This document shows positions 18,491 through 63,449 of a DNA stretch of 64,000 nt, piece after piece. Source of the DNA: a virus. Every line of letters begins with the position of its first letter. Position 1 is the stretch's first letter. Position numbers and translations under genes: made by a program. The stretch covers positions 64,001 to 128,000 of the IMG/VR virus record IMGVR_UViG_3300027777_000023. The stretch is one strand, 5' to 3'. The notes under the pieces are model-generated. The model made no database searches and had not been told where the DNA came from. It saw only the letters and a program-made list of their open reading frames with translations.

Positions 18491-19516
18491 ATGTCTAAAT
18501 TAGCAACAATAGCAAAAATACTAGCGCTAGAAGCTATTCCTGACGCAGACCGTATTGAGCGAGCTACAGTGCTTGGTTGGTCGGTGGTAGTAAGAAAAGG
18601 CTTACACGAGGTAGGTGATCTGGTTGTGATGATATTCCCAGATACACTAGTACCTAAACAGTACCTAGACCCGACTTACGAGGGAGATGAAAAGGTTCGG
18701 CTTAAGACTATAAAGATGAAAGGTCAGTACAGTGCAGGCCTAGTTATTCCACTAGCCGATTGGGCTACGCCCCCCGGTAAATATAGTGAGGGTGATGATG
18801 TGGCTGAACTTCTCGGTGTAGAGAAATATGAAACACCTATCCCTGCAAGTATCGGTGGAGATGCGTTGGGGGTATTTCCAACAGCGATCGTAAGCAAGAC
18901 AGATGAGGATAATTACAGGACTAACCCTCAAGCAATCGAAGAACTAGGTGAAGAGCGATTTAAAGATACTTCGTTTGTAGCTACGCTAAAGTGTGACGGC
19001 AGTAGCGGAACATTCTTTCTTAAAGAAGGGTTGTTTCGAGTATGCAGTCGTAACCTAGAGCTACGTGAAACTGAAGGTAATGCTTTCTGGCAGGTGGCAC
19101 GAAAGTACAGACTAGAGGAAGTTATGCGTGAGCAAGACGTAGAATATGCTATTCAAGGCGAGGTGTGTGGTCCTGGAATACAAGGAAATCCTATGAAGCT
19201 TAAATCGCTTTCATTATTTGTATTCCTGATCAAAGATCTAAGCACAGACAAATGGCTACCTTGGGAAGACACTGTAGAGTTCTGCAATGCGCACAACATT
19301 CCGCTTGTGGAAGAACTATTCAAGATAGCTCACTATCACGATCTGCCCAGATGGGATGAGCTACAAGCAATCGCAAACAATACTAAATACGATAACGGTA
19401 AAACAAACGCTGAAGGCTTGGTGTTGCGCACAACCACACCAATGCACTCAAAAGTACTAGGTAAAGCCTGGTGGAGTCTGAAGATCATGAACGAACCCTA
19501 CGACGTAAAGAAATAA
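18491..19516 (+). CDS. ATP-dependent RNA ligase, DRB0094 family
   Basis: N-terminal LATIAKILALEAIPDADRIE..GWSVVVRKG OB module, motif I TLKCDGSS, QGEVCGPGIQGN, EGLVLR, SLKIMN. Confidence 0.9.
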   Translation: MSKLATIAKILALEAIPDADRIERATVLGWSVVVRKGLHEVGDLVVMIFPDTLVPKQYLDPTYEGDEKVRLKTIKMKGQYSAGLVIPLADWATPPGKYSEGDDVAELLGVEKYETPIPASIGGDALGVFPTAIVSKTDEDNYRTNPQAIEELGEERFKDTSFVATLKCDGSSGTFFLKEGLFRVCSRNLELRETEGNAFWQVARKYRLEEVMREQDVEYAIQGEVCGPGIQGNPMKLKSLSLFVFLIKDLSTDKWLPWEDTVEFCNAHNIPLVEELFKIAHYHDLPRWDELQAIANNTKYDNGKTNAEGLVLRTTTPMHSKVLGKAWWSLKIMNEPYDVKK

Positions 19517-19518
19517 AT

Positions 19519-20933
19519 ATGGAAGCAACACAACAAACAAATATCTCGCTGTATAAAGAAGAAGACTGCGCAGGCTGGTCACCCAAGATGTGCACAGTGC
19601 CTGTTTGGGGAGTTACGGCTTTGCTTGGCGTCATAGCAGCTTATTCATTAGCAACCATACCAGTGATGTGGGCACAGAATAAGCTGATTATGCGAATGCA
19701 AAAAATGGAGCTAATCATGGTGGACGCAAAAATAGCGACCTATAAAGATGACGGTAAATTTGTGGTGCTGTGGAAAGGTTCACATGTCATGGACAGTCAG
19801 CTAAAAACAGAACATGAGTGAAGAATCAAAAGATACACTAGCACTGATTGCCGGCTGCATGCTGGCTGGTTGGTTAATTTGGATTAGACGATACAATGAA
19901 AAAACTATATAAAGCAACGTTCCATGCAGTCATCTATGCAACTGAAGAAAAGGCATGGGAGGTGGCCGATAACATGGAAACTAACGGCGTGATGCTGGAT
20001 AGAGATGATCTTCCAGAAATCACTACGATCGAAGAAGTACCTAGTGGTTGGTGTTACGCGGATAATTATCCTGTGACTGGTTGTGCTCGTATAGGTTTTC
20101 ATCAAGCAGAACTATACGACGACACCATCGAAGAACTTCTGGAGCGCAGCAAGATTCCAATACCAGTAACCTCCGCAGAAAGTATCCTAGAGCTTAAAAA
20201 CGAAATAGCTGAACTGAAGAAAACAGTAGAGGCACTAGCTAAAAAGATTAAAAGGTAAAATGAAAAAGAAGCTGTTTCTTAAAAAAGATCCAGAGTATCT
20301 AACAGTACTCACAGATGAAATGAAGGAGGATGTATCTCGCATTCGAGAGATACTAGATGTTCATGGCTATGAAGCAGCTGAAGCTACAATAGTCAAAGCA
20401 TGGGAAAAAGCGTCAGACGATCGTCTTTGTATGAGTTGGCTACCCACAGATCATATGAAGGACGATCTAGTATTCACCGCAATAATGGACTACTTAACAG
20501 AATGAATAATATATTCTTCACAAAGAAAGGTTGCACCGAGAAAGCCGATGTAGACCGTATCTGGCCAACAAAGCACTTTAGTACGACTCCGAGGGAGTTC
20601 TTTGCGGCGGCTGGATTGACCGACTTGTTCGTAACGATAGATCCTGTGATGGTAAACAAGAGTTATTTCCTGTTTAATATAACTGTACAGTCCGTCGCAA
20701 ACATAAAATACAATGAGTTTGTTGGTGGGCACGTATATGCGTACTCACCTGCCTTGCTTAGTGCACACTACGAAAGCAAACGGCTAGGGCTGCAGTCCTG
20801 GCACGACCCAGTCAAACATACAGGATTCAAAGTCGACCAGCAAGAGTACTGGCACAACATGCACGATATGCTAGAGCTCGTGCGTGAGGCTGTTGCAAAG
20901 TGTGATACCTATTTCCCTAAACAAACACCATGA
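19519..20933 (+). CDS. Hypothetical ORFs (19519-19821 with one TM segment, 19896-20258, 20260-20505, 20502-20933)
   Basis: Co-oriented packed ORFs with no recognised motifs. Confidence 0.6.
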
Positions 20934-21328
20934 AGCACCTACTAGTAAACGCAATAGTAACACCAGACGGTACAATGCTAGAGTCAACGCACAGGCATGA
21001 TTACCAGGAGCATAAAGATGCTAACGGAGAAACATACATACTAGATGGAGGAATAAACTATATAAGACGCAGCCTAAATCAGATTCCCGCAAAGGATGCT
21101 TCGGTATACTCTGATGATCCTCATGAGATTATTCGTGAGGCGTTTCGCTGGGGTACACGAGGCCCTGGAAGATTAGAACCATTAAAGTGGAAAATCCTAG
21201 CTACACTTGAAGATGACCACATAGAGGCAATACTTGCTACGCAGCTACAACTGCCTGAGTACATCAGAAAAGTATTTAAAAACGAGCAGGTCTACAGAAA
21301 GAACGAGCATGAAAAAGACAACCAGTAG
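20930..21328 (+). CDS. Conserved phage hypothetical protein
   Basis: LESTHRHDY..H.D.NG..Y.LDGG..YIRR pattern recalled from many large phages. Confidence 0.7.
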   Translation: MKHLLVNAIVTPDGTMLESTHRHDYQEHKDANGETYILDGGINYIRRSLNQIPAKDASVYSDDPHEIIREAFRWGTRGPGRLEPLKWKILATLEDDHIEAILATQLQLPEYIRKVFKNEQVYRKNEHEKDNQ

Positions 21329-21400
21329 ACGAGTAAAAACTGTCAAGTCAGGTAATGTAACGATTCGTAAAACAGTAACGATAACAAAAACAGTCAAACG

Positions 21401-22528
21401 ATGAACCTACCAAAACTATACAAGCGTACCGTAACAAGAGCCATCCAAGAATGGCAGATCTTTTTCGCAGATGGCGAATACTATACTGTCAGTGGTCAAA
21501 CAGACGGTAAGAAAGTAACTAGCACCCCTACAGTCTGCAAAGGCAAGAACCTAGGCAAAAAGAACGAGACCACTAATGAGGAGCAGGCTGAGCTAGAGGC
21601 AAAGGCTAAGTGGCAGAAGAAAAAGGATGAAGGGTATATCGAAAACATCGAGGCCGTTGATGGTGCGATGGATTTTCGATTTAATCCCATGCTGGCAAAA
21701 GACTATGCAAACTACGAGGACAAGATCGCTTTTCCTGTATATAGTCAGCCTAAATTGGATGGTCTCAGATGCGTGATTACTAGGGAAGGCACGTTCAGCC
21801 GGCAGTGGAAGCCTTTCGTCACATTAGATTATGTGCAAGATGTCTTGCGAGCTGTGTTTGATCAAAACCCAGGATTGCTTGCATTTGACGGTGAGATGTA
21901 TTCTCACGAGCTCAAAGATCGCTTTGAGGAAATTGTGAGTATTGTAAAGCAGCCAAAGGCTACAGCTGAAGATCTGGAAAAGTGTAAAAACAATATTCAG
22001 TATCATGTGTACGACGCTGTGTTTGAGGAAGCCCATAGCTTTAGTGCGCGTATAAACGCAGTAACTATGCTACTGCGTGAATTGGACAGCCCATATATCA
22101 AGCTTGTGGAAACAGACCGCATCCGAAATCAAGACGATCTTGATGCGATGTATCAGCAGTATATGCAAGAAGGCTATGAGGGTCAAATGATTCGCACACC
22201 TCTGTCATTGTATCAGCATAATCGAACCAAAGATCTATTAAAGCGTAAGGATTTCCACGACGCTGAGTACGAGATCATAGGCTATAAAGAAGGCAAAGGC
22301 AGTCGTGAAGGCTGTATTATATTGCGGCTCGGTATGGCTGACGGCACTGAATTTGATTCTGTGCCTGTTGGCGGTGTAGAATATCTGCAAAGATTGTGGC
22401 TTCGTCGAGAAGACCTGCTGGGCTTGCGGGCAACTGTCAAGTACCAGAACCTCAGCAATGACGGCATTCCAAGGTTCAACAACACAGTAAAGATCAGAAA
22501 CCATAAACTAGAGGAAATGGTATTCTAA
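21401..22528 (+). CDS. ATP-dependent DNA ligase
   Basis: PMLAKDY, motif I QPKLDGLRC, FDGEMY, YHVYD, EGYEGQMIR, LLKRK and C-terminal OB fold. Confidence 0.95.
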   Translation: MNLPKLYKRTVTRAIQEWQIFFADGEYYTVSGQTDGKKVTSTPTVCKGKNLGKKNETTNEEQAELEAKAKWQKKKDEGYIENIEAVDGAMDFRFNPMLAKDYANYEDKIAFPVYSQPKLDGLRCVITREGTFSRQWKPFVTLDYVQDVLRAVFDQNPGLLAFDGEMYSHELKDRFEEIVSIVKQPKATAEDLEKCKNNIQYHVYDAVFEEAHSFSARINAVTMLLRELDSPYIKLVETDRIRNQDDLDAMYQQYMQEGYEGQMIRTPLSLYQHNRTKDLLKRKDFHDAEYEIIGYKEGKGSREGCIILRLGMADGTEFDSVPVGGVEYLQRLWLRREDLLGLRATVKYQNLSNDGIPRFNNTVKIRNHKLEEMVF

Positions 22529-23366
22529 TGAAAACATTAAGAGACAAGATAGATGACTGGGTAGATGAATTCTATCCAGATAACACTATATTAATTGCTG
22601 ACGGATTCGAAGAAGCTTTCGTGGGCGTAGCTGTCCAATTCAATACGCCAATAGCAATATTTGACAGACAAAAGTGTATCAAAATACTTATGCAAGATAT
22701 GAGTGAAGATGAAGCGTATGAGTATTTTGAGTTCAACGTTAGTGGAGCATATGTTGGTGAAAACACACCAGCATTCATAGAGTTCTTTCCCAATGAATCT
22801 TAGAATATTCTTCGTCATAGCCGAATACTCTGATAAGGTGTTCGGTGTCGTAGCTCAAAACAACACATTGCTATATTCAAAGCAGGTGCATGATCGCTAC
22901 GACTTTGCTGACGGCATCAAAGCTGTAAGATCCGTAGAGTCTGAGGAGAGTATTATACATCAAGCGTTCTGCAAAAAATATCCAGAACTAGCTAGTCAAC
23001 TGATTGATAAGCATCCAGAAATAGCAAAAACCAAACAAACAAACCAATAAAACTATGAAAAAAGTTACACTTGAGCAAGCGCACGAATTACTAGAAAATA
23101 CTTCCGCAGTTATCTGGGGAGAAGAAGGCAACCTATCATATCCTCTTGTCAATGATCTTGAAGGAGACGAAGATAATTGCTTTTTTGAATTAATCCTGGA
23201 CGATGAAGAGATGCGGTTTAATGAAGGAGATAATCAAACAGTCGTACTAGACGGATTTAGTATGGTACTTGTTGATGAGTATGGTGAAAATCAGTCAATC
23301 ACTTTGCTTGTACCTATGGACGTAGAAGATCCTTTTGTAGAAAAATTGAATGACGAAGAAGAATAA
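22528..23366 (+). CDS. Three small acidic hypothetical ORFs (22528-22803, 22793-23050, 23055-23366)
   Basis: The first carries the common phage pattern ADGFEEAFVG..EEA.EYFEFNVSGAYVGENTP. Confidence 0.65.
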
Positions 23367-23445
23367 TCTTAAAGTGTCAGTATGATTTTGTTAAGGTTTT
23401 AAAAAAATACGAAGAAAAATTTCTAAAATATAGAAAGGAGTGACC

Positions 23446-24339
23446 ATGAAAAAGAATCAAATTAAAGAGCCCAATACAAATAATAAAATTATTGTTTGTC
23501 GCGGGCTCCCGTGACCGGCTAGCGGAAAATCGACATGGGCCAAAGACTTTATTGACCGTAATCCTGGGTGGTTGCGAGTCAACAAAGACGATCTCAGGGC
23601 AATGCTTCACAACAGTAAGTGGAGCAAAGATAATGAAAAGCAGGTATTGCTTGTGCGTGACAGCATGATTATCGGAGCATTGAGTAGAGGGTATGGTGTG
23701 ATTGTTGATGATACGAATTTCGCTAGTCAGCACATCACAAATATTCAACTTATTGCTGAGGATTATAAAGCAGACTTTGAGGTAAAAGACTTTGATGTCT
23801 CGCTTGAAGAATGCTTGAAGCGTAATAGTGAGCGAATGCCTAGGGTCCCGGATCGAGTGATCCTAGATATGTATAATAAATATGTGTTGCCTAACAAACC
23901 TAAAGTCAAAAATAATAAAGATCTACCACCGTGTATTGTATGTGATCTTGACGGCACGCTCGCAATTCATGTAGATCGTGGTCCGTTCGAGTTTGAGAAA
24001 TGCTACTCTGACGAGGTAAATGAGAGTGTGCTGGGCTGTATAGACGCAATGACTAAACGAGGATTCAAGCTAATCTTCGTTAGTGGACGTCCAGATAGCT
24101 GTCGAGACGAGACAGTGCGTTGGTTGAATGATAAGTGTTGGCTCGGTTCTGGATACATATTGTACATGCGAGCTACAGGCGACAACAGAAAAGATAGCAT
24201 AGTGAAGGAGGAGATTTATAAAAATGATATTCTTCCTGAATACTATGTAGAGTTTGTGCTAGACGACAGGCAACAGGTCGTCGATGCATTGCGGGAAATG
24301 GGATTACAAGTATGGCAAGTTGCACGCGGAGATTTTTAA
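23446..24339 (+). pseudogene. pseT: PseT-like polynucleotide kinase/3'-phosphatase with an in-frame TGA inside the kinase P-loop
   Basis: Reads KIIVCRGLP-TGA-PASGKSTWAK (TGA at 23512-23514), in frame with RVNKDDLR. The C-terminal HAD domain is intact (CDLDGTLA, FVSGR, KDSIVKEE, FVLDDRQQVV). Confidence 0.85.
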
Positions 24340-24342
24340 AAC

Positions 24343-24627
24343 ATGAATAAATTTACAACAGAACAAATTGAAAAAATTAAAGAAGTGCATACGGAAATAG
24401 CTGACTTGCAAAAAACGCAAGATAAGCTATTTGATCGACTGATAAAAGATTTAGAGTTCGAAGACTATGCTGAAGCATGGCAAAACGACGCTGATTGCTA
24501 TATATTCAAGGACGATAACCCTGCAAACTGGTTGTTTGACACAATATTCAATACTGCCTTTGACGAGCTATGTGACTCGATTAAAAGCATTGAAGAGCAT
24601 TGGGGTATGTACAATCAACGAGATTAG
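24343..24627 (+). CDS. Hypothetical acidic protein
   Basis: 94-aa ORF between PNK and the RNA ligase. Confidence 0.65.
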   Translation: MNKFTTEQIEKIKEVHTEIADLQKTQDKLFDRLIKDLEFEDYAEAWQNDADCYIFKDDNPANWLFDTIFNTAFDELCDSIKSIEEHWGMYNQRD

Positions 24628-24683
24628 ATATGACTGGTTGCTGCGGTTCCTTCAATAGGGGCCGCAGCACCAACAACAACCCT

Positions 24684-25772
24684 ATGAAACAATTCATGTA
24701 CTTACTCGACAATGGTTTCGTCGTGAGGGAAAGAGAGATAGGTGGTGAGATGTGCTATCTTGTATTTCCATCTTCTTTGGGTGTTAAATGGACCAAGAAT
24801 AATTTGATATACAGAAGCAGTATCTGGACCGCAGATATGAAACCTGTGTCGCTGGGGTTCAAGAAATTCTTTAATTTTGGGGAAGCGCCTGAACTTGTGA
24901 GAGACCCTCGAAGCAGCGATATCTTGCTTGGTGGATCTGTGGTAGAAAAGATCGACGGTTCTTGTCTCATTGTGAGTAGGTTTAAGGGGCAGTTAATCTG
25001 TAGGACCAGAGGCACCTTTGATGCTAGGGAAAAACCTACAGGAAATGAGTTAGACTATCTGGAAAAGAAATATCCAAAAGCTTTCCAAAACGATGACCTG
25101 GCGAGTGAGCAATGCAGTTACGTATACGAGTGGACGACTAGTGCAAATCGTATTGTTGTGGATTATGGAGAGGAGCCAAACATACGATTAATTGCTAGAA
25201 TCTCCCATGAAGACTATCGCTACTCTTATCAGACCGTCCTGGATGGGATAGCTCAGGATATTGCTGTAAGTAGGCCGTACAGGTTGCTCGCTCCTGGTGT
25301 GAGTATGATAAAGACTCAACTAGAAAAGATGCGTCTCAGTGAAGGATACTGTGTGTACTTCAACGATGATCAGGACATCAAGAAAATGAAATGCGACTGG
25401 TATCTGAAAGCTCACAGATTCAGGAGCAACTGTTCATTACCATACATACTAGATTTATTTCTAGAGCAAGATTGTCCAGATATAACCTCATTTGTCGAAG
25501 CGCTTGAAAAAGAGTATGACTTTGAATGCGCTCCTGAAGTCAGGTCGTACGCATCGTCGGTATGTAGAGCCTATGCAGATGTGCAGGTACTCATACTCAG
25601 AGTCAAAGACTTCACAGGCACACTAGACGGCAAAAACAACAGAAAAGCTGCAGCAGAGGCTATATTAGCAGAATACAAGGACTCAGGATTGACAGGGGTA
25701 GCGTTTAATTGCTTGGACGGAAGACAAACAACAAAACATCAACTCAAACAATTGATACTTCAACAACTATGA
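24684..25772 (+). CDS. rnlA: T4 Rnl1-like RNA ligase
   Basis: SLGFKKFFNFGE, motif I EKIDGSCLI, YVYEW, SEGYCV, KMKCDWY. Start moved to the ATG at 24684. Confidence 0.85.
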   Translation: MKQFMYLLDNGFVVREREIGGEMCYLVFPSSLGVKWTKNNLIYRSSIWTADMKPVSLGFKKFFNFGEAPELVRDPRSSDILLGGSVVEKIDGSCLIVSRFKGQLICRTRGTFDAREKPTGNELDYLEKKYPKAFQNDDLASEQCSYVYEWTTSANRIVVDYGEEPNIRLIARISHEDYRYSYQTVLDGIAQDIAVSRPYRLLAPGVSMIKTQLEKMRLSEGYCVYFNDDQDIKKMKCDWYLKAHRFRSNCSLPYILDLFLEQDCPDITSFVEALEKEYDFECAPEVRSYASSVCRAYADVQVLILRVKDFTGTLDGKNNRKAAAEAILAEYKDSGLTGVAFNCLDGRQTTKHQLKQLILQQL

Positions 25773-31183: not shown

Positions 31184-32953
31184 TTACTGTTGTTGAGGTT
31201 GTGCTGCTTGTTGTTTTGCTCCTGACAATCCCTGAGATTTAGATTGGGATGTCATTTGTTCGAGCTGTGCCTTTACCTGGGCGTATAACTCCTGGTCTTG
31301 TCCTTTAATTTGTTGTAGTTGTTCTCTGCGCTGTGCTCCGTCTAGAGGGAATAACTGCTGTGCGAGCTGCTGGGCCTTTTCCAGAGCGTCTTGAGGTGTA
31401 CCACCACCACCACCTCCACCAGGCTGCCCTGGTTGACCGCCTTGCTGCTGTCCCTGAAGCATCTGCATGAGATTCTGCTGCGTAGCCTGAGCAATCTGAT
31501 CTTTTTCTTTTTCTTCTTCTTGAATTTCCTGAGTAACGCGATCTTCGTGCATCTTTTTGCGTACCTGATCTTCGTAGTCGAAGTTGTATAGTTTGAGAAG
31601 CTCGCTTCTTGCGATAGAGTTTGCTGAAACTAACTGACCGATTACAGATTTGCGTTCCATATCGTCAGAGAACGTAATCGGAATTAACGATATCTTGGCT
31701 TTAGGCAATCCCATGATGTTACCCACAACCGTACCTACATGTGTAAGTAATTTGTTGTAGTTTGCTGGAATAACACTCCAAGCATTTTCAAACATACGAA
31801 GCATTGGTCCGGCGGCCTGTTGTTGAAAGGTCATTTCAAACATTTCCACAGGTACATCTAATGCATTAAGAATCATTTTTTTAGCGTACTCCATCATTTC
31901 TGTGGGTGCTAGCTTTGTACCTTCACCACCAAGTTGCTGATAATTCAACGGAAACGCGAACTTATGATACGAGCCTGGATCTCTTCTATGCTCTTCAATC
32001 ATATCATCTACAGCTCCACTCCACACACCACCGTTTTGATTCAATAGTGGGTTGGCTGCAGGATTACTGCCGTCGCCCATAGAAATAACCCTGAAAGGTG
32101 CGATATCCTCGAAGCAGATAACTTCATTATATCTTTTTAGGGTCTGCAACATAAACAGATCTTCAAAGATAAACATACTAGGAGGAATAGCCTTACCATC
32201 TGTGCGTATTGTGCTGGGAGTATCCAACTTCAAATGCACAAAGTTTTTTGTGTTAAACGAGAGCATTGTCTTATTAAAAACACAGTCGTAAACAACCTGG
32301 GGAGTTTTCTTGCTATAGAACTTATTGTTCTTTGTGGTTACCTTTTTACCGTACTGTTGAGGGATATCCCAAAAGTACTCACTTTCACCAGTTGTTTCTT
32401 CGTGACGTATTCTGATTTCTTTAGCGGGCCAATGAACCACATGAATTTTATCAACGTCATTAGCAGGCTTATCAATACACCTGTGCTCACCCTTATAACT
32501 GCATTTAAGGCAGCTCATGTAATACTTGCCTTTGTTGAACTCGTAATTCTGCAGTTTATCGATATTCGACGATTTGAAACAGACCGGGCAGCTTAGATAT
32601 CTATAGAACCCTTGATTTACTGTTATAAACTCATTACCATAGGCTAGTAAATTTAACCCAGCTTTTGCACATACACCCTTCCAATTAAGCTTATCAAAGA
32701 TCTCAGTATATTGCTTTTTTGCTTCCTCGTCATCACATTCAATAGACAACGAAGTGATAAAGTAGTTCGCAATTCTGTTCAGTGCCTGCTTATAAAAACC
32801 GTTTCTATAGAGAAAATGCTCTGCCCAAAGAAGCATGCCCTCAATGTTCATCGGCAAATACTGAAGCGGAATGTTATAAAATGGATTAGAATAACGGTCT
32901 CGACCATTATCACCGATTTTAAAATAGCTTTGGGGATCTTCTGCAGTAGTCAT
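31184..32953 (-). CDS. Probable portal protein with Zn-ribbon insertion and Gln-rich tail
   Basis: Size 589 aa; YKQALNRIANYFIT..GLNLLAYGNEF pattern seen in large-phage portals; CPVC..CLKC insertion. The portal call is an inference. Confidence 0.5.
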   Translation of the reverse strand: MTTAEDPQSYFKIGDNGRDRYSNPFYNIPLQYLPMNIEGMLLWAEHFLYRNGFYKQALNRIANYFITSLSIECDDEEAKKQYTEIFDKLNWKGVCAKAGLNLLAYGNEFITVNQGFYRYLSCPVCFKSSNIDKLQNYEFNKGKYYMSCLKCSYKGEHRCIDKPANDVDKIHVVHWPAKEIRIRHEETTGESEYFWDIPQQYGKKVTTKNNKFYSKKTPQVVYDCVFNKTMLSFNTKNFVHLKLDTPSTIRTDGKAIPPSMFIFEDLFMLQTLKRYNEVICFEDIAPFRVISMGDGSNPAANPLLNQNGGVWSGAVDDMIEEHRRDPGSYHKFAFPLNYQQLGGEGTKLAPTEMMEYAKKMILNALDVPVEMFEMTFQQQAAGPMLRMFENAWSVIPANYNKLLTHVGTVVGNIMGLPKAKISLIPITFSDDMERKSVIGQLVSANSIARSELLKLYNFDYEDQVRKKMHEDRVTQEIQEEEKEKDQIAQATQQNLMQMLQGQQQGGQPGQPGGGGGGGTPQDALEKAQQLAQQLFPLDGAQRREQLQQIKGQDQELYAQVKAQLEQMTSQSKSQGLSGAKQQAAQPQQQ

Positions 32954-37197: not shown

Positions 37198-37274
37198 GCA
37201 CCTGTAGCTCAGTCGGATAGAGCAACGGATTTCTAATCCGTCGGTCGTTGGTTCGAATCCAACCAGGTGCACCA
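37198..37274 (+). tRNA. trnR: tRNA-Arg(UCU) with encoded CCA
   Basis: GCACCTG/CAGGTGC acceptor stem, anticodon arm ACGGA-TTTCTAA-TCCGT, T loop GGTTCGAATCC, 3' ACCA. Confidence 0.97.
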
Positions 37275-38829: not shown

Positions 38830-38876
38830 AAGAAGCCATTCGCCTAGAGATAGGTTGGGTGGCTTCTTTTTTAGCT
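38830..38876 (+). terminator. Rho-independent terminator with T-tract-AGCT tail
   Basis: AAGAAGCCA / TGGCTTCTT stem, then TTTTAGCT. Confidence 0.85.
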
Positions 38877-38945
38877 ATCAGGTACCCCCCCTCCCCTCCC
38901 CCAGGGTATAAATAGGTAGGTGTGTGGTATAATACTTTGAATCAG
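38867..38945 (+). repeat. Terminator-tail/C-tract/promoter cassette, copy 1
   Basis: TTTTTTAGCTATCAGGTAC-C7-T-C4-T-C5 ... TATAAATAG-N9-TGGTATAAT-ACTTTGAATCAG; related copies at ~39410-39500, ~39885-39960 and ~45400-45480. Confidence 0.9.
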
Positions 38946-39416
38946 AGTTGTGTAGATATAGCGTAAAACCTATATTTATATTAACCGGCAATGATTCGCT
39001 GCGTATTCCCCGGCACGAGGATACAGCTAGGGTTAAGCTAGATCTCTGTATGTACAAGCAGAGAAGCCCGGTCGGTCGTCCCTGCCAGACACATAACAAT
39101 GGTTCCACTCGTGGCAGGAGAGTGAAACCAAAACCCTCACCCATGGGTGGGTCACCTATTAGGTGACCCAAGGGTCGCGCCAAGTTGACAAGCCAGGGTC
39201 TTCAATTACAGTTTAATCAGCTATAGCAAACCTCGAGGCGGCGAGAGAGGCTATAGTATGATCTGTAATTATGAAAAGTAGCTGAAAGGCTCACCTAGCT
39301 AAAGATGGACAAGATACATCTAAAAACCCGGATTAAGGGCTAACAATCCTTATGGGCTAAAATCTTCAACCGATAAATGGTCGGCAATGGAGTAAAAGCG
39401 TTAACGCGCTTTTTTT
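38941..39416 (+). ncRNA. Candidate large structured non-coding RNA (~475 nt)
   Basis: Has its own promoter (-10 at 38928-38933) and terminator (39394-39416), about ten complementary stems, a 7-nt loop-loop complementarity, and no convincing ORF. Confidence 0.7.
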
Positions 39417-39500
39417 AGCTATCGGGTACCCCCCCTGTATAAATAGTAGTTTGAGTGGTATAATACTTTGAATCAGCGGCCAGTAACTGCTGATAGTTTT
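39410..39500 (+). repeat. Terminator-tail/C-tract/promoter cassette, copy 2
   Basis: 39456-39500 is identical over 45 bp to 45436-45480 (TGGTATAATACTTTGAATCAGCGGCCAGTAACTGCTGATAGTTTT). Confidence 0.9.
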
Positions 39501-39508
39501 TGTTTGTT

Positions 39509-39835
39509 ATGAAAAAATTCAGAGACATCATGGTTCTTAAACAAGTCAAAGAAGTAGTCTGCCACCTCGGCCGGCCATTGGGCAAGGCGTATTCACTCGA
39601 ATATACCCCCCACGGGGTAGTGTTGAGGCGCAGTGATGACTTGGTCTGGCGCTCAGAAGAGAGCCAGATCGAGAAAGTCAAGGAAGCGCTGCAGTCACCA
39701 CAAGGTCTCAAGGTTGAGATCTTGGTGGATGGCTGCGATGAACCAGTTTACACCCCTCCCGACTGGAGTTGGTGTCAGGCGGAGCTGGAGGAGGCAGACC
39801 TTGTAGAGCTGGATCACATGCCTAGTGCATGGTGA
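39509..39835 (+). CDS. Hypothetical protein, single-gene cassette
   Basis: ATG at 39509 after the leader hairpin; terminator at 39856-39895. Confidence 0.65.
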   Translation: MKKFRDIMVLKQVKEVVCHLGRPLGKAYSLEYTPHGVVLRRSDDLVWRSEESQIEKVKEALQSPQGLKVEILVDGCDEPVYTPPDWSWCQAELEEADLVELDHMPSAW

Positions 39836-39855
39836 TAGCTCATTGCAGGGAGGCG

Positions 39856-39895
39856 GCAGTATTGGGTTCAATCCCCAGTACTGCTTTTTTTAGCT
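39856..39895 (+). terminator. Rho-independent terminator with T-tract-AGCT tail
   Basis: GCAGTATTGGG (39856-39866) / CCCAGTACTGC (39874-39884) followed by T7-AGCT. Confidence 0.85.
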
Positions 39896-39957
39896 ATCAG
39901 GTACCCCCCTCCCCTCCCCCCATGGTTAAACCAGCTATATAGTGGGATAATACTTTG

Positions 39958-40740
39958 ATGAGCAAAAAAGTGCTATCATCGATTAAGCCTGTTTGTCAGG
40001 TGACCTCCGGAGTCGAATCCGGAAAAGCAGTAGCAGTATCGGCCTTCAAAGCCGAAATGTTGGTGGCCTTGAAAAAGGTCACCAAGGTAGAGTGGGCGGG
40101 ACTCGCAGCTGGGGTCATGATGATGACGCTCATCGGGATGATGGGCTATGGGGCCGGAAAGGCCCTGGAAGAGCAGCAGAAGGCTCTCCAGAGCCTGTCA
40201 GTTAGGTTGGATGAGGCGGCTGATATAGGCGTCTCCCTGAAAGGGGAGATAGCCGCCCTGCGCCTCACGTTGGTGGCGGTGGAGACAGCTGAAGAGCTCC
40301 ACACCAGACGCGAAGAGCTCCAAACCAGACGCCTTGACGGGCTAAGTCTGATGGCAGGCGATGGGGCAAAGAAGGTCGCCGCCCTTGAAGGAGCGGTAGA
40401 CTCCAACGCCAAAAATACGGCGGTAGAGCTCGCAACCATTAGGAATGGAGTTGCGGGCGCAGCCGAAGTTGGGCGGGCAGGGCTTCTGGTAAGCAGTCAA
40501 ATGGGGTGCTTGATAGGTTCAAGCATGCTGGGCGAGAAGGTGCGGGAGGTGGCCAAGGCCATGGCTCCAATGGTGGAGCCTGTGTCTTGGTACAACCCGA
40601 CGGCGGAGGTGATAGCACCCACAGCACCCATAGCAGAGGTGCCAGCACCCATGCCAGCACCCATGGCAGAGGTGCCGCCACCTGAATCCTGGACAGCCAG
40701 GATGCGCAGTCGACTGGCGGCGACCCTTCTCGCCAAATGA
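39958..40740 (+). CDS. Membrane-anchored coiled-coil protein with Pro/Ala tail; visibly GC-richer than flanks; probably leaderless
   Basis: TM segment WAGLAAGVMMMTLIGMMGYGAG; TGG-GATAAT ends 6 nt before the ATG. Confidence 0.65.
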   Translation: MSKKVLSSIKPVCQVTSGVESGKAVAVSAFKAEMLVALKKVTKVEWAGLAAGVMMMTLIGMMGYGAGKALEEQQKALQSLSVRLDEAADIGVSLKGEIAALRLTLVAVETAEELHTRREELQTRRLDGLSLMAGDGAKKVAALEGAVDSNAKNTAVELATIRNGVAGAAEVGRAGLLVSSQMGCLIGSSMLGEKVREVAKAMAPMVEPVSWYNPTAEVIAPTAPIAEVPAPMPAPMAEVPPPESWTARMRSRLAATLLAK

Positions 40741-44900: not shown

Positions 44901-45401
44901 GGTATAGGACTAGGGGTTAGCACAGCTAGCACTGGCGTGAACATAGCTAGAGACGTGCATAGATATAATAACCGGCCTGTAGAGTTTAGTAGAAATCCTG
45001 AGAATGTAAAACTTAACGCTCCAGAAAATCCTGTACAGATTCCTCAAACACTAGCTAAAGCTGGGAATGTAAGCAAAGAAGCTAAAGGCAGATGCTGGGA
45101 AGGCTATAAGCCTGTTAAAGGTAAAAAGCCTTATAGTGCGGATAGCTGTGAGCCGGTAGCTAAAGAAATAGAGAAAGAGGCAGGTATGCCAGATTGGTTA
45201 AGAAGAGCTATACGCAATAACGATAAATCTACGTTGAGTAGTGCAGGTAAGGCCGGGGCAAGAGCACGAGCAAAGAATCTGGCAGCTAAGAAAAGTAAAG
45301 ATGAATTAAGACGCATGCTTGATATGGGTGCTGAAGCGGTGCCCAAGATTATTCATCCACCTAGCGCATATAATGTACAACCTCCCTTGCCAGGGATCTA
45401 G
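41967..45401 (+). CDS. 1144-aa modular protein: HExxH module, DUF6624-like domain, Gly-zipper, CWEGY motif
   Basis: RHEAAH (43089-43103); DQSFR..LLVQHAD..AHLDDRINVNRGRPQMYGSQ..RRKEMGL (~43880-44370); GRCWEGYKPVKGKKPYSADSC; modules separated by K-x-A motifs. Confidence 0.7.
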   Translation: MFNFVQLAKKLQKNVKKAENKEKLVTFLHKYALVVQNSDKNQPTTQKPDTVGVVSGQTLGALASQVGESPTPKAMTTQITAPKAVKMPSTTEKPIMAGILAEDHPGETQSINGNRAVAGADAPSKMTAFPKVMGEVADTAAQSTVELSSLPPDLLHMSRMTNPFDGNAKLYAGGKLRSTPTPPPQVLTPSPSPVNSAQNPSRPKLSPGLEGYVTPQYTASGIDTVKNDRFDSRSYIATRESNGGESPYNMENFKGVITPRAVLNNTYGDQLDKNVAEASAYNKKNNPHNEIEKNIDKPVHLFESDKDVTSYSPAFASNSASPRNEGIININPIRKDRDAFTLQKNHMAQISPNNKSLSTTTDPEMVQNPWNSLRHEAAHAMYPAQNLIRMEDKDSALSNNALRSALNTQNPEIVKTMPAHTEVMTRGYFADAGERATGISTAQQDMFRLTGNRAKTPEQFQAFINKYLSSPNIEKSMQELSPNTRRYIRFHVGMPEEQKWKFMQSDAHVAPGFVQNQQQPMGQKIASCRSTGVFDCDGNEYVNGDDVELLGKLGFILAISEYGKLEKTSEVYDQYSYIEKIAGIPKAVVKAVDKGDAFSGEFLKDMDYDVPKGYEMKGDLCCPVEKKADDAAPSNTTWSSELLNELTSRIAKDQSFRSGNAISTNNTVSGQDIDKSNIAWLKPHLDKFGLPTGQPGKDVALLVQHADFDPDFQETVLQKMRTHNQSNPGSYGGETVAHLDDRINVNRGRPQMYGSQGGEIFENGKWTWKPKEIFESHNLENRRKEMGLIPHKEYTDLINKHFVSKLPLPAQQPPTQNTLTPNTTPNLSTKIQPTPIGVNQDVSNIYGAGDTPYGEKPVKNPFPGIAGDVGVNVLEFLAARGARRAQNNNIEAALSKGVLGGPYGPPVPPGSGGTPIPGSSLIGKARMWGNVANGVPLFGAGTQLQGANDRRKDGDYTGMLIDGVGALGSAAQLHPLTKGIGLGVSTASTGVNIARDVHRYNNRPVEFSRNPENVKLNAPENPVQIPQTLAKAGNVSKEAKGRCWEGYKPVKGKKPYSADSCEPVAKEIEKEAGMPDWLRRAIRNNDKSTLSSAGKAGARARAKNLAAKKSKDELRRMLDMGAEAVPKIIHPPSAYNVQPPLPGI

Positions 45402-45480
45402 TACCCCCCCCCACCCATATAAATAGTGATCTAGATGGTATAATACTTTGAATCAGCGGCCAGTAACTGCTGATAGTTTT
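45400..45480 (+). repeat. C-tract/promoter cassette, copy 4
   Basis: GTAC-C9 ... TATAAATAG (45418-45426)-N9-TGGTATAAT (45436-45444) plus the leader identical to copy 2. Confidence 0.9.
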
Positions 45481-45492
45481 AGTTTATTTATT

Positions 45493-45708
45493 ATGATCCA
45501 GGAGCTTTTGGTAGAAATGTTGAAAGAAAGAGACAAACTGACCTATCTGGGAGCTAAATTGGCGCCCGAAAGGCAGACGCACTACAGAAGAGAAGCTGAT
45601 AGGCTTTTTAGGGTGCTGGGGGCGTGCAACCCCTTTACAGTTGACCCGAAGAAAGAGCTCCTTGCCTACAACGAGCTCATGGAAAAGGTCAGTGAAGCTG
45701 ACTTGTAG
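45493..45708 (+). CDS. Small hypothetical protein, single-gene cassette
   Basis: ATG at 45493 after the cassette leader; terminator at ~45713-45755 ending T7-AGCT. Confidence 0.6.
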   Translation: MIQELLVEMLKERDKLTYLGAKLAPERQTHYRREADRLFRVLGACNPFTVDPKKELLAYNELMEKVSEADL

Positions 45709-45790
45709 TTCAAAAGCGTGTTCCCTTTGAGGGAAGTAAACCGCTTTTTTTAGCTATCAGAGATCGGTAGAATAAAGTATAATATTATCC

Positions 45791-47586: not shown

Positions 47587-48951
47587 ATGAGCGACTGCGG
47601 CAATCATTCTAATTCCTTTCACACGCGTCGAGAATTTCTTACAGACTTTGGAGCAGGACTTGGTGGGTTATCTCTCGCTGCATTATTTAACATAGATTCA
47701 GCTACAGCAGAAGCTGCATCACCGTTAATAGCAAAACCGTCTCATTTCCCAGTAAAAGCAAAAGCTATTATTCAGTTGTTTGCGAGTGGGGCCCCGTCCA
47801 GTGTTGATACATTTGACTATAAACCCGAACTTCAAAAGAATGATGGAGTAGAGATTGGCAATGGAAGGTTATTGGGTTCTCCTTTTAATTTTCCAAAATT
47901 TGGAAAATCGGGCTTAGAAATTTCTGAAGTGTGGTCTAAACTAGGGCAGCATGCAGATGATATGGCAATCATCAATTCTATGTTTGCAGAGATACCTGAT
48001 CATGGTATTGCAGCAAAGATGTTTAATACAGGTTCTGCTCAACTACCTAAACCAAGTCTTGGTAGTTGGATGGTATACGGTCTTGGTTCTTTAAATCAGA
48101 ATATGCCTGGATTTATTTCATTAAACGGAAACGCTGATTGGAGACAATGTGCGTTTCTTCCAGGGATGTATCAAGGATGCAACGTGCAGTATCGATCTAC
48201 AATCAAAGCTGAAGAAATTTTAGCAAATATTCGCAGTGAGTTTTCTACTCAAGAGCGTCAACGCCGTCAGATTGATTTTGCAAAAGTATTAAATGCCAAT
48301 CATATGGCTCAATTGCAGAGAGATGTTCAACTTGAATCTCGTATTGAAGCGTTTGAAACAGCGTTTAAGATGCAGACAGAAGCTACTGATGCGTTTGACA
48401 TTAAGAAAGAACCTCAAGCTATACATGAGCTGTATGGTGCAGGTGAGGAGGCAGCAAAGATGATTGTTGCACGCAGACTAGTTGAAAGAGGGGTTCGTTT
48501 TGTTCAAGTGCAGGTTGGTGGGTATGATCATCATACAGACATTAAGGGCAGCATGACAAGAACAGCTGAAAGATACGACAAACCATTCTCTGCTCTATTA
48601 ACTGATCTTAAACAAAAGGGGTTGCTTGAATCCACTCTTGTTATTTGGGGTGGTGAGTTTGGTAGAACCGTGACAGCAGGAGGAGGTGCAGGTTTACCAG
48701 GCAGAGACCACAACGGTAAAGCATTCTCTGTCTGGATGGCTGGGGGCGGTGTCAAGGGTGGTCAGCGTTACGGTGAAACAGATGAAACAGGCGGTAAAGT
48801 GGTTAAAGACGCGGTACACATGCACGACTTCCATGCTACTATATTAGCTTTAATGGGATTTGATCACACCAAACTGACTTATAACTACAATGGTAGAGAT
48901 TTTCGTCTAACAGATAACTTTGGTAATGTAATTAAAGATATTATTGCGTAA
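47587..48951 (+). CDS. DUF1501 domain protein with twin-arginine-type signal
   Basis: TRREFL..GLGGLSLAALF, SGAPSSVDTFDYKP, PKPSLGSWMVYGLGS, RRLVERGVRFVQV, WGGEFGRT, GRDH, HMHDFHATIL. Confidence 0.92.
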   Translation: MSDCGNHSNSFHTRREFLTDFGAGLGGLSLAALFNIDSATAEAASPLIAKPSHFPVKAKAIIQLFASGAPSSVDTFDYKPELQKNDGVEIGNGRLLGSPFNFPKFGKSGLEISEVWSKLGQHADDMAIINSMFAEIPDHGIAAKMFNTGSAQLPKPSLGSWMVYGLGSLNQNMPGFISLNGNADWRQCAFLPGMYQGCNVQYRSTIKAEEILANIRSEFSTQERQRRQIDFAKVLNANHMAQLQRDVQLESRIEAFETAFKMQTEATDAFDIKKEPQAIHELYGAGEEAAKMIVARRLVERGVRFVQVQVGGYDHHTDIKGSMTRTAERYDKPFSALLTDLKQKGLLESTLVIWGGEFGRTVTAGGGAGLPGRDHNGKAFSVWMAGGGVKGGQRYGETDETGGKVVKDAVHMHDFHATILALMGFDHTKLTYNYNGRDFRLTDNFGNVIKDIIA

Positions 48952-48955
48952 TCAT

Positions 48956-51928
48956 ATGAAAAAAAGTTTGGTTTTTCTTGCGTTGTTTACCGCATCCTGC
49001 AGTAATATCTTTGCAAAACAAGACTTTACATCTGAACAGTTAGATTTTTTTGAAGCAAAAGTACGACCGCTTTTAAACGAGAAGTGTTTAGAATGTCATT
49101 CTAATGAAAAAGGAAAAGTTAAAGGTGGGCTTTCTTTAGACTCGAGACAAGAGATTCTCAAGGGAGGTGAAAATGGAGATGTCTTTAATAAAGACAGTGT
49201 ATCAAAGAGCTCTTTGCTAAAAGCCATTAACTGGAACGGTGACCTTCAAATGCCGGAAAAAAAGAAACTCTCTGACGAACAGATATCTATTTTTACACAA
49301 TGGTTTGAGATGGGTATTCCCGACACAAGACAGGTGGGAGATAAAGCTTTTAAAAACACTAAGAAAAAAAATTATTGGTCTTTTCAGCCTGTTGTTAAGC
49401 CTAAGATACCTTTAGTAAAAAATGAGAGTTGGTGCTACAACACTGTTGATAGATTTGTATTAGCTAAACTTGAAGACAAAAAAATTATACCAGCTGTAAC
49501 GGCACGTAAAGAAACTTTAATCCGTAGAGCTTATTTTGATCTCATAGGTATACCTCCAACACCCAGACAAACAGCAGAGTTTGTTGTAGATGAATCAAGC
49601 AATGCATTTGAAAAGGTTGTTGATAAACTATTGGCTGACCCTGGATATGGAGAGCGTTGGGGTAGACATTGGCTTGATACTGCCAGATATTCAGATACAA
49701 CAGGCGAGCCTAATAATAATGTTAAAGATTATAGATATTCTTATGCTTGGTCTTATAGGGATTGGGTTATTAATTCATTTAATAATGACATGCCCTATGA
49801 TCAATTCTTAAAGAATCAATTGGCGGCCGATAAAATACCAAATAATAATGTTGCCAATCTAGCGGCATTAGGTTTTCTGACTATAGGTCAGAGATTCAAT
49901 AATATGGATGATGTTATCAATGACCGTATCGATGTTGTTGGTAGAGGTATGCTGGGGCTAACACTAGCGTGCGCCCGTTGTCACGACCATAAATTTGACC
50001 CAATTACTTCAGAAGATTACTATGCGTTACGAGGTATATTTTTAAGCTGTAATGAGCCAAGTGAAGGACCTATTATTGCGGGCGATTCAAATTCTCCTAA
50101 GTATATCGAATTCACTAATAAGATGAAAGAATATGAACAAAAGTCTTATCAAGCTTATTATACTATAGTGAGAGAACATGGAAATAAAATCAGAAAGAAC
50201 GCCCAAGCTATGGCTGAGTTTATAATGGTTCTTGGGAAAAACCCTACCGTTGAACAAAGAGAAAAAGCATCTGAAATTGCTAAGAAAAATAAGTTGGATG
50301 AACGAGAAATTGCAGACAATTTTGGCAGAAAATTTAAACCAAATGATCCGTTGCTTGGGCCGTTTGCAAAAATGCATAACGATAAACTTACTATTGAAGA
50401 AGTGATAAACGACAAAAAACAAAAACTCTCTCCTGTAGTTTTTGAATTTTTAAAGAAGCAACAAACATCCCCAACAACTGATATAGAAATTGCAAGATTA
50501 GTTGGCAGTTTTTTTGAAGAAATTGAAACAAAGGCAGCTTCGGTTTTTGCTCAAATAATGAACCCTGAAACAAAATTAGAAGACGCTAATTTCAATAAAG
50601 ATCTAGCAGATGTAATTGTTTTCCCGTTTGAGTTAAATTTAATGTCAGATCTTTCAATAGAGAAGCTTAAACAAATTGCTGAGAAATTTCCCATGCAACA
50701 ACAAGGTGAATTAAGAAACAAAGCTTTTTTAAATCAAATTAATGAATTAAAGTTAACTTTTAAAGGCGGTCCAGTAAGAGCAATGATTATTGAAGATAAG
50801 CCTAAACCTGTAGACTCACCACTGTTTGTTAGAGGTAATGCACCAAAGGCTGGAGAAAAAATAAAAATAGTGCCAAGAAAGTTTATTGAAGTTTTAAACA
50901 CTAACAACCTATCTGAATTTAGTAAGAGTGAAAGTGGCCGCTTAGAACTAGCAGAAGCTGTTGCAAGTAAAAATAACCCTCTTACGGCTCGAGTGATAGT
51001 AAATAGAGTGTGGATGTATCATTTTGGAGAAGGATTAGTGAGAACACCGGATGACTTAGGCAATCAATCAGGTATACCAACCCACCCTGAACTGTTAGAC
51101 TTTCTTGCTAATTGGTTTATGGAAGATTATGGGGCAAAGAAACCAGCCTGGTCGTTGAAAGCTTTACATAAAGCGATAATGCTCTCAAAGACATATCAGC
51201 AAAGTAGCAACACCATTTCTAAAATTCAATTAGATGAATATAGCAAGTTAGACCCGGGTAATAGCCTACTCTGGCATGCTAATGTACGTAGATTGGATTT
51301 TGAATCTTACAGAGATTCGTTGTTGAGTATGGGTAAAGTACTACAGAGAGATGTTGTAGGTGGGCCTTCTTTTAATGTACTTGAAGAGCCTTTTATATTT
51401 AGACGAACAGCATATGCGTATATAGACAGAGCAAATATGCCTGATGTAATGATGCAGTTTGATATGTCAAACCCAACTGAGCCAAACACGAAGAGAACCA
51501 GCACCATTGTACCGCAGCAAGCATTGTTTTTAATGAATAGCCCGCTTGTCGCAAACATCGTACAAAACATCTCACACAGACAGGAAATGGTGGATGCTAT
51601 TAAACTTGAAAAAAATACTGATAAAGGTATTATAACCGCATTTAGAATTGTATTACAACGAACACCAACGCTTTCTGAACGAACGTTTGCGTTAAACTTC
51701 TTATTAAAAGAAAGTAAAGAGCAAGAAAATGTAAAAACTGCTATGAATCCTCTAGCTAAAGAAGCTCAGAAAAAGGCTGAAGATAAATACAAACAAGCTC
51801 TAAACAATAATAATTCTCGTAAAGCCATTGTAAACGAAGGCCAGGTAACAGAGCGTGCCGCTTTTTCACCATGGGAAGTTTTAATACAATCTTTAATATT
51901 TACAAATGAAGCAGCGTATGTAAATTAA
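48956..51928 (+). CDS. Planctomycete cytochrome c (PSCyt1) + DUF1549 + DUF1553/PSD1 protein
   Basis: Signal peptide; FFEAKVRPLL..KCLECH (CxxCH); LIRRAYFDLIGIPPT, GYGERWGRHWLDTARY; CARCHDHKFDPI (second CxxCH); GRLELA..NPLTARVIVNRVWMYHFGEGLV..PTHPELLDFLA; PQQALFLMNS. Confidence 0.93.
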   Translation: MKKSLVFLALFTASCSNIFAKQDFTSEQLDFFEAKVRPLLNEKCLECHSNEKGKVKGGLSLDSRQEILKGGENGDVFNKDSVSKSSLLKAINWNGDLQMPEKKKLSDEQISIFTQWFEMGIPDTRQVGDKAFKNTKKKNYWSFQPVVKPKIPLVKNESWCYNTVDRFVLAKLEDKKIIPAVTARKETLIRRAYFDLIGIPPTPRQTAEFVVDESSNAFEKVVDKLLADPGYGERWGRHWLDTARYSDTTGEPNNNVKDYRYSYAWSYRDWVINSFNNDMPYDQFLKNQLAADKIPNNNVANLAALGFLTIGQRFNNMDDVINDRIDVVGRGMLGLTLACARCHDHKFDPITSEDYYALRGIFLSCNEPSEGPIIAGDSNSPKYIEFTNKMKEYEQKSYQAYYTIVREHGNKIRKNAQAMAEFIMVLGKNPTVEQREKASEIAKKNKLDEREIADNFGRKFKPNDPLLGPFAKMHNDKLTIEEVINDKKQKLSPVVFEFLKKQQTSPTTDIEIARLVGSFFEEIETKAASVFAQIMNPETKLEDANFNKDLADVIVFPFELNLMSDLSIEKLKQIAEKFPMQQQGELRNKAFLNQINELKLTFKGGPVRAMIIEDKPKPVDSPLFVRGNAPKAGEKIKIVPRKFIEVLNTNNLSEFSKSESGRLELAEAVASKNNPLTARVIVNRVWMYHFGEGLVRTPDDLGNQSGIPTHPELLDFLANWFMEDYGAKKPAWSLKALHKAIMLSKTYQQSSNTISKIQLDEYSKLDPGNSLLWHANVRRLDFESYRDSLLSMGKVLQRDVVGGPSFNVLEEPFIFRRTAYAYIDRANMPDVMMQFDMSNPTEPNTKRTSTIVPQQALFLMNSPLVANIVQNISHRQEMVDAIKLEKNTDKGIITAFRIVLQRTPTLSERTFALNFLLKESKEQENVKTAMNPLAKEAQKKAEDKYKQALNNNNSRKAIVNEGQVTERAAFSPWEVLIQSLIFTNEAAYVN

Positions 51929-56059: not shown

Positions 56060-58233
<2,174 letters not shown>

Positions 58234-58259
58234 CCAAATCAAACACAAAATAAAATAAT

Positions 58260-63449
<5,190 letters not shown>

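Follow-up and report, generated by a model that had tools for sequence, protein, structure and literature searches.

Does the 476-nt stretch at positions 38941-39416 of the window (the whole 64,000-nucleotide piece of viral DNA analysed here) carry an RNA gene, and if so, is it the single ornate, roughly 475-nt RNA of the GOLLD/ROOL/OLE class that the initial annotation had proposed? The virus record to which the window belongs, that of a large freshwater phage, is 189.6 kb long and 97% complete with a repeated end. Besides tRNAs, a tmRNA and a group I intron, it encodes DNA polymerase A, RecA, RNA ligases, DNA ligases and DUF1501/PSCyt genes. The clade of this phage is frequent in IMG/VR (38 and 56 loci) and only distantly related to isolated phages, with a portal protein 22-25% identical to those of Vibrio D69 and Salmonella phage Arash. 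Because the bacterial relatives of the DUF1501/PSCyt genes belong mostly to Planctomycetes and Acidobacteria (~42% identity), a PVC host (Planctomycetes/Verrucomicrobia) is probable.

Several features of these genomes are recorded here in their own right. Window positions 47587-51928 hold a gene pair of Planctomycetes type, DUF1501 plus PSCyt1/DUF1549/DUF1553, and a 78% identical copy occurs on a contig assigned to a Bacteriovoracaceae MAG (L191), probably a misbinned phage contig. Two RNA ligases, a polynucleotide kinase-phosphatase and a DNA ligase cluster at 18491-25772; they make up an RNA-repair set, in keeping with pressure from host defences that cut RNA. Two long ORFs at 56101-63449 are built from 9-nt collagen-like repeats. 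Outside the window (G000 31899-32312, L189 8330-8539) lies a tmRNA whose tag has 31 residues, with a group I intron (Rfam RF00028, 68.7 bits) directly 3' of it. The tRNA-Gly that ARAGORN calls at 40627-40702 (minus strand), inside the 3' end of an opposite-strand ORF and with no Rfam match, is probably spurious.

Evaluating the plus-strand sequence around the locus, we found all the parts of a self-contained transcription unit, which bears out the dedicated promoter and terminator described in the initial annotation. The terminator of the upstream gene, with its U-run signature and a C-tract (38840-38902), marks the left boundary as a PeSL-like terminator/promoter junction, and is followed by a promoter (38903-38940) whose extended -10 element at 38925-38933 is one of 9 similar elements in the genome, with a predicted transcription start at about 38940-41. 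Next come a leader of generic cassette type (38941-38993), consisting of a hairpin (38947-38985) and an ATG at 38991 that opens merely 16 codons, then the cargo, and finally an intrinsic terminator (39394-39416; stem 39394-39413 plus U-run) with the right boundary directly after it (39408-39434). The same succession of terminator, C-tract and promoter repeats at 39408, at 39883 and near 45400-45760 (45743). A tRNA-Arg at 37198-37274 lies 1.7 kb away and is separated from the unit by the terminator at 38840-75, so it is not co-transcribed.

The closest relative of this phage, L119 (97% exonuclease identity), lacks the unit and has other, ORF-bearing cassettes at the site. A 92% identical promoter there drives an ORF of ~104 aa, at least 7 such promoters in the corresponding region drive small ORFs, and dozens of sister cassettes consist of an ORF and a plain terminator with no structured 3' element. 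The L119 cassette at 18520 was considered as a homolog and rejected, as it shares the promoter but has an ORF as cargo. From sequence comparison, we interpret the unit as one promoter-leader-cargo-terminator cassette within a swappable array, and its patchy distribution suggests exchange by recombination at the junctions. As separate observations on these arrays, the mRNAs of small cassette ORFs (L119 12600-15000; window 39500-40740) fold with unusual stability (z -2.7 to -5.0), and their leaders are A/C-rich with no evident Shine-Dalgarno. Several cassette terminators (window 39855-39885; L119 12995-13025 and ~18940-18975; L328 12795-12762, minus strand) carry in their loop a tRNA T-loop-like heptamer and look like the T-arm of the tRNAs encoded by the phage (repeat family D16); they are possibly tRNA-derived terminators or recombination points.

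Turning to the fold of the unit, we recovered every stem of the initial annotation exactly where it had been placed. Pair probabilities were high for the stems 38950-61/38970-81 and 39043-49/39058-64 (0.96 each), for 39149-57/39161-69 (0.98) and for the rod at 39204-39270 (0.90-0.98), and lower for the GAAA hairpin at 39280-91 (0.69) and the long-range helix 39025-31/39294-300 (0.52). The 7-nt loop complement 39081-87/39112-18 is also present, and a fold with both 7-mers in hairpin loops costs just 1.3 kcal/mol. The unit as a whole has an MFE z of -4.5, but control values ran from -2.1 to -5.0 in ten protein-coding cassette or neighbouring ORFs, drawn from this phage and from its closest relative, and in two further ORFs, so folding energy alone is no evidence of a non-coding RNA. 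We read the individual motifs against their frequencies per 476 nt in dinucleotide shuffles and genome tiles, respectively, for motifs that were defined after the fact: 1% and 2.3% for the loop-loop 7-mer complement, 0% and 1.8% for a perfect 10-bp hairpin, 9% and 11% for a palindromic 6-mer in a loop, and 10% and 9% for a 12-nt palindrome (which here overlaps the 10-bp hairpin at 39148-49). With palindromes in about 10% of controls and strong folding common among cassette ORFs, the 'ornate multimer' is unsupported by these features.

Is the unit instead a small gene? Its 72-codon ORF begins at a TTG inside the leader hairpin, has no homolog that we could find and scores poorly for codon use (-0.14, by codon scores that discriminated poorly). 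It is also missing from the homologous unit described below, and so the unit is very probably non-coding, as the initial annotation held.

Among related phage loci, we found one homolog, at L131:5279-5756 (IMGVR 3300009151_000461; E 2e-43). It occupies another genomic site, which lies downstream of the portal module and in L328 is filled by an unrelated cassette. Both units are built alike (478 nt in L131, 476 nt in the window), with the same kind of promoter and leader (the window leader is weakly similar to that of L131, 2/300 shuffles) and the same terminator. Homology is limited to the 3' ~225 nt (39192-39416; local score 291 vs 22 for shuffles), and the middle segments score no better than chance (18 vs 19). 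In the window, the middle segment (39040-39199, plus strand) is folded and not conserved, holding the hairpin with the palindromic loop, the candidate intramolecular kissing loop 39081-87/39112-18 and the 10-bp hairpin at 39148-70, and neither nhmmer nor covariance model R2 found a homolog of it in 1.8-3.1 Mb of related phage DNA. In L131, its place is taken by a 62-codon ORF behind a typical cassette leader (L131 5334-5522), called by gene finders; this 62-aa ORFan had no sequence homologs in two large searches and is confidently predicted to adopt a fold like that of small unnamed viral proteins (pLDDT 0.79, TM 0.82). The conserved part starts 15 nt after the stop of this ORF in L131 and 25 nt after the stop of the 72-codon ORF in the window. 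An inversion of the 5' segment between the two phages was considered and is not established, because 2.3% of genomic controls exceed the reverse-strand similarity and two orientations were tried.

The conserved part, as compared between the two copies by folding and covariation, is a plus-strand RNA module of six helices (P1-P6, 39192-39392) that runs directly into the terminator. P1 (39192-96/39295-99) closes a three-way junction with two arms, the bulged 67-nt rod P2 (39204-39270) and the hairpin P3 (39278-94), and three further hairpins follow on its 3' side, P4 (39303-21), P5 (39327-56) and P6 (39364-92). P2, P4, P6 and the terminator fold independently in both copies (49 shared pairs), and P3 does so in full-length folds. 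An invariant pairing of the 4-nt rod bulge 39212-15 with the loop segment 39334-37, extendable to 7 bp (39212-18/39331-37), is a pseudoknot in candidate status only, because it never varies. Two elements singled out in the initial annotation look different with both copies in view: the GAAA tetraloop is present in the window and reads GAAU in L131, and the long-range AGCTAGG/CCTAGCT helix exists in the window, while in the homolog a local partner for the 3' strand 39295-99 is seen, the segment immediately 5' of the rod. The long-range helix 39025-31/39294-300 may replace P1 in the window copy, where P1 has a mismatch.

Conservation of the module exceeds that of coding sequence. The window and L131 copies show 84% identity across 220 nt and share an exact run of 65 nt; identity is 66-80% in the remaining aligned stretches, most of them core genes, and no other exact run in 20 kb is longer than 27 nt. 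All three plus-strand frames of the module are broken by stops. Within a consensus of 65 pairs, six are double-compensatory, two carry single compatible changes and one is broken (the C-A mismatch in P1 of the window copy), a result reached by 9 of 500 column shuffles, which with two rows is not a probability. We also scattered the 34 substitutions at random over the structure taken from one sequence's own fold. In this permutation test, double changes numbered 6 and 4 (for each sequence's own fold) against a null of 0.7-1.0 (P 0.0002-0.005), and broken pairs were scarcer than expected (P 0.0003-0.004). Because there are only two distinct sequences, the covariation rests on six pairs. Genes of both phages are recorded in one metagenome sample (3300010885), so the 65-nt exact run, and part of the identity, may reflect recent exchange rather than selection. 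Two U-G wobbles and a better folding z on the plus strand (-3.75 vs -2.38 on the minus strand) favour a plus-strand RNA over a DNA hairpin. The covariation that the initial annotation named as a check appears in one homolog and is confined to the 3' module; this conserved, covarying module is the decisive evidence for an RNA, one that the initial annotation had no means of seeing, and we consider it highly probable that it is a structured RNA under selection.

How widespread is the module? No 13-mer of it is repeated elsewhere in the phage genome, and blastn against phage and plasmid collections returned chance matches only. Motif scans of IMG/VR, metagenomes and genomes recovered, among the matches listed, only the contig of L131 and otherwise chance matches, and covariance model R1 found no further copy in 58 records of related phages, in related whole genomes totalling 1.5 Mb or in 302 genomes of PVC bacteria (a weak match in L149/L150 was rejected, being antisense within a 1273-aa ORF). 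The module is either rare or has remote members beyond the reach of a two-sequence model. We found no description of an RNA bearing it in the literature searched.

What might such a module do? We propose that, as an accessory cassette of a large lytic phage, the unit would be transcribed early in infection by a host-type polymerase, an extended -10 promoter of host type giving a ~476-nt transcript that ends at the intrinsic terminator, and that its functional part would be the 3' ~225 nt folded into the module. By recombination at the repeated terminator/promoter junctions, the module would move between phages and sites, and it can sit behind differing cargo on its upstream side, as with the small ORF of L131 and the folded non-coding segment of the window. 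Our best guess, tentatively held, is a role in trans as a protein-binding RNA, a decoy or scaffold by which the phage would occupy, early in infection, an RNA-binding protein that serves the host in defence or regulation. Protein binding in trans is favoured because the junctions, loops and rod stems keep their exact sequence, as expected of a recognised surface, because no antisense target of the module was found in the phage genome, and because cassettes of the PeSL kind carry host-adaptation functions. It is further favoured because sister cassettes do without a 3' element of this kind and because there is no ORF in the window copy for the module to serve. Against it stands the L131 copy, whose position in the 3' UTR of an ORF fits a role in cis equally well.

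That role in cis is the main rival, one that we hold unlikely without thinking it far-fetched: the module would be a 3'-end element that stabilises, localises or processes its own transcript, possibly as a ribozyme of unknown kind, and the 5' half in the window would then be either what is left of a lost ORF or a further RNA cargo. The module is indeed fused to the terminator and placed behind other cargo in both copies, at the short distances from a stop codon given above, and in L131 that ORF has a typical cassette leader and a confidently predicted fold; yet a plain terminator serves the dozens of sister cassettes, and no credible ORF exists in the window copy. A ribozyme in particular finds no match among the known models (hammerhead, HDV/theta, twister, pistol, hatchet; cmscan at E<=10, both copies). 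An HDV-like reading failed on inspection, with no G at L3 position 6, no GG after P1 and a P1 that conflicts with the leader hairpin. As for a new class of phage RNA, a portable ~225-nt module with a biochemical activity of its own (a new ribozyme, or a decoy against a PVC RNA-sensing defence), plugged behind interchangeable 5' cargo (an mRNA or a second RNA domain with a kissing loop) and spread by cassettes, we regard this compound proposal as improbable.

Lower still we place the proposal of the initial annotation, an ornate RNA like GOLLD, ROOL or OLE that would form RNA-only oligomers through kissing and palindromic loops, with conserved 3' and variable 5' domains. The near-equal length of the two units, the proximity of the tRNA-Arg in a phage genome and a loop-loop complement rare by chance (1-2%) speak for it, as does GOLLD itself, in which the 3' region is conserved and the 5' region less so (PMC12286853). 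The loops meant to oligomerise, however, all lie in the 5' half that the sole homolog replaces with its 62-codon ORF, whereas kissing and palindromic bridges are conserved in ROOL and GOLLD (PMC12286853), and the conserved ~225 nt has one multistem junction, against six of them, plus three pseudoknots, in ROOL (PMC5737381).

There is likewise only a slim chance that the unit has no RNA function at all. It would then be either a gene for a small ORF or neutral DNA that was copied recently from one co-occurring phage to another, and its hairpins would reflect the generally high folding of these cassettes. Cassette ORFs do fold with z down to -5, one homolog emerged from all searches, and the two phages share a sample. 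But the 34 substitutions between the copies avoid or compensate pairs (P<=0.005), and the closed frames and the poor credentials of the 72-codon ORF stand against a small gene.

Weakest of all, and very improbable, is the reading that the tRNA/tmRNA cluster of the phage is served here by a degenerate RNase P RNA, or by a tRNA-binding module derived from the S-domain, for although by-eye look-alikes of CR-I (~39061-71), J12/13-P13 (39271-95) and CR-V (39322-36) occur in the right order with a long helix, a UGAAA linker and a small hairpin as in type A, the genome has tRNAs, a tmRNA and a group I intron, and diverged RNase P RNAs can fall below model thresholds (PMC8172020), RF00010 gave no match at E<=10, an HMM built from 20 RNase P RNAs, most of them from PVC bacteria and Acidobacteria, scored both copies within shuffles (24/500 and 76/500), the P4 helix with its bulged U reaches on inspection at most 4 contiguous pairs in either copy and is mismatched at the catalytic end, the CR-I-like half is not conserved, ~80 conserved nt including extra hairpins lie 3' of the CR-V-like motif, and a T-loop reading would require unpaired a base that covaries as a Watson-Crick pair (column 19/85).

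To our knowledge, phages of Planctomycetes and Verrucomicrobia have barely been described, and we know of few functions for phage RNA genes beyond tRNA and tmRNA. Against this background, a compact module supported by covariation, better conserved than core genes and carried in cassettes of accessory genes suggests that such cassettes carry RNA effectors besides small proteins. A length of ~225 nt and the existence of two natural variants make it easy to transcribe, to probe and to employ as bait; having two sequences limits its weight, and its expression and function are predicted.

Comparing the unit with known RNA families, we found nothing relevant in Rfam for either copy at gathering and E<=10 thresholds, GOLLD and ROOL included, which upholds the novelty claimed in the initial annotation and leaves its class assignment without a match. 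The GOLLD model (RF02032), a covariance model of the conserved 3' domain, had no match at E<=10. Like the unit, GOLLD is phage-encoded, lies near tRNA genes and has a conserved 3' and a variable 5' part, and the unit shares that location in a phage near a tRNA gene (tRNA-Arg, 37198-37274). Unlike it, the GOLLD model spans 416 positions with many members above 800 nt (the conserved part here is ~225 nt), and in the present unit the 5' part can be an ORF and the intermolecular loops are not conserved, being absent from the sole homolog in a comparison of two sequences. ROOL (RF03087) likewise had no cmscan match at E<=10, and a targeted search, run with no positive control, was also empty. ROOL and OLE resemble the unit as phage-borne multi-hairpin RNAs of similar size (476 vs ~581 nt for ROOL); unlike theirs, the conserved topology here is far simpler, with one junction and one candidate pseudoknot, and the kissing loops are not conserved. 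On present evidence, the unit is not a member of the GOLLD/ROOL class.

What omega RNA/HEARO and retron or DGR ncRNAs have in common with the unit is a conserved ~200-nt scaffold behind a variable 5' part, or else a long rod with bulges. They differ in that IscB, TnpB and reverse transcriptase (PF14239, PF07282, PF00078) were not found in the 97% complete phage genome and Rfam gave no match, though a host-encoded partner is possible. No convincing match of the module to host-type rRNA or 6S RNA was seen either. The module belongs to none of the RNA families tested, and is new and rare.

The closest likeness is to the arrangement rather than the RNA. In T4-like phages, PeSL-bounded regions carry adaptive genes (PMC4122927, PMC2839356), and there, as in the window, single accessory units are enclosed by recurring terminator/promoter junctions and vary from one close relative to the next (PMC2839356, PMC4122927), with near-identical promoters driving different cargo, as between the window and L119. 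We see repeated junctions flanking single variable units, and cargo that differs between relatives at the same junctions (L119 vs window; L328 vs L131), in a phage that, unlike the hosts of the described PeSL cassettes, is not T4-like. What we observe here is the cassette anatomy, its patchy presence, two different genomic sites, conservation above that of coding genes and compensatory changes. Judged on its sequence, the locus is a real, new and rare structured RNA module in a putatively mobile phage cassette, and whereas PeSL cargo as described is protein-coding, this PeSL-like cassette appears to carry a structured RNA as its cargo.
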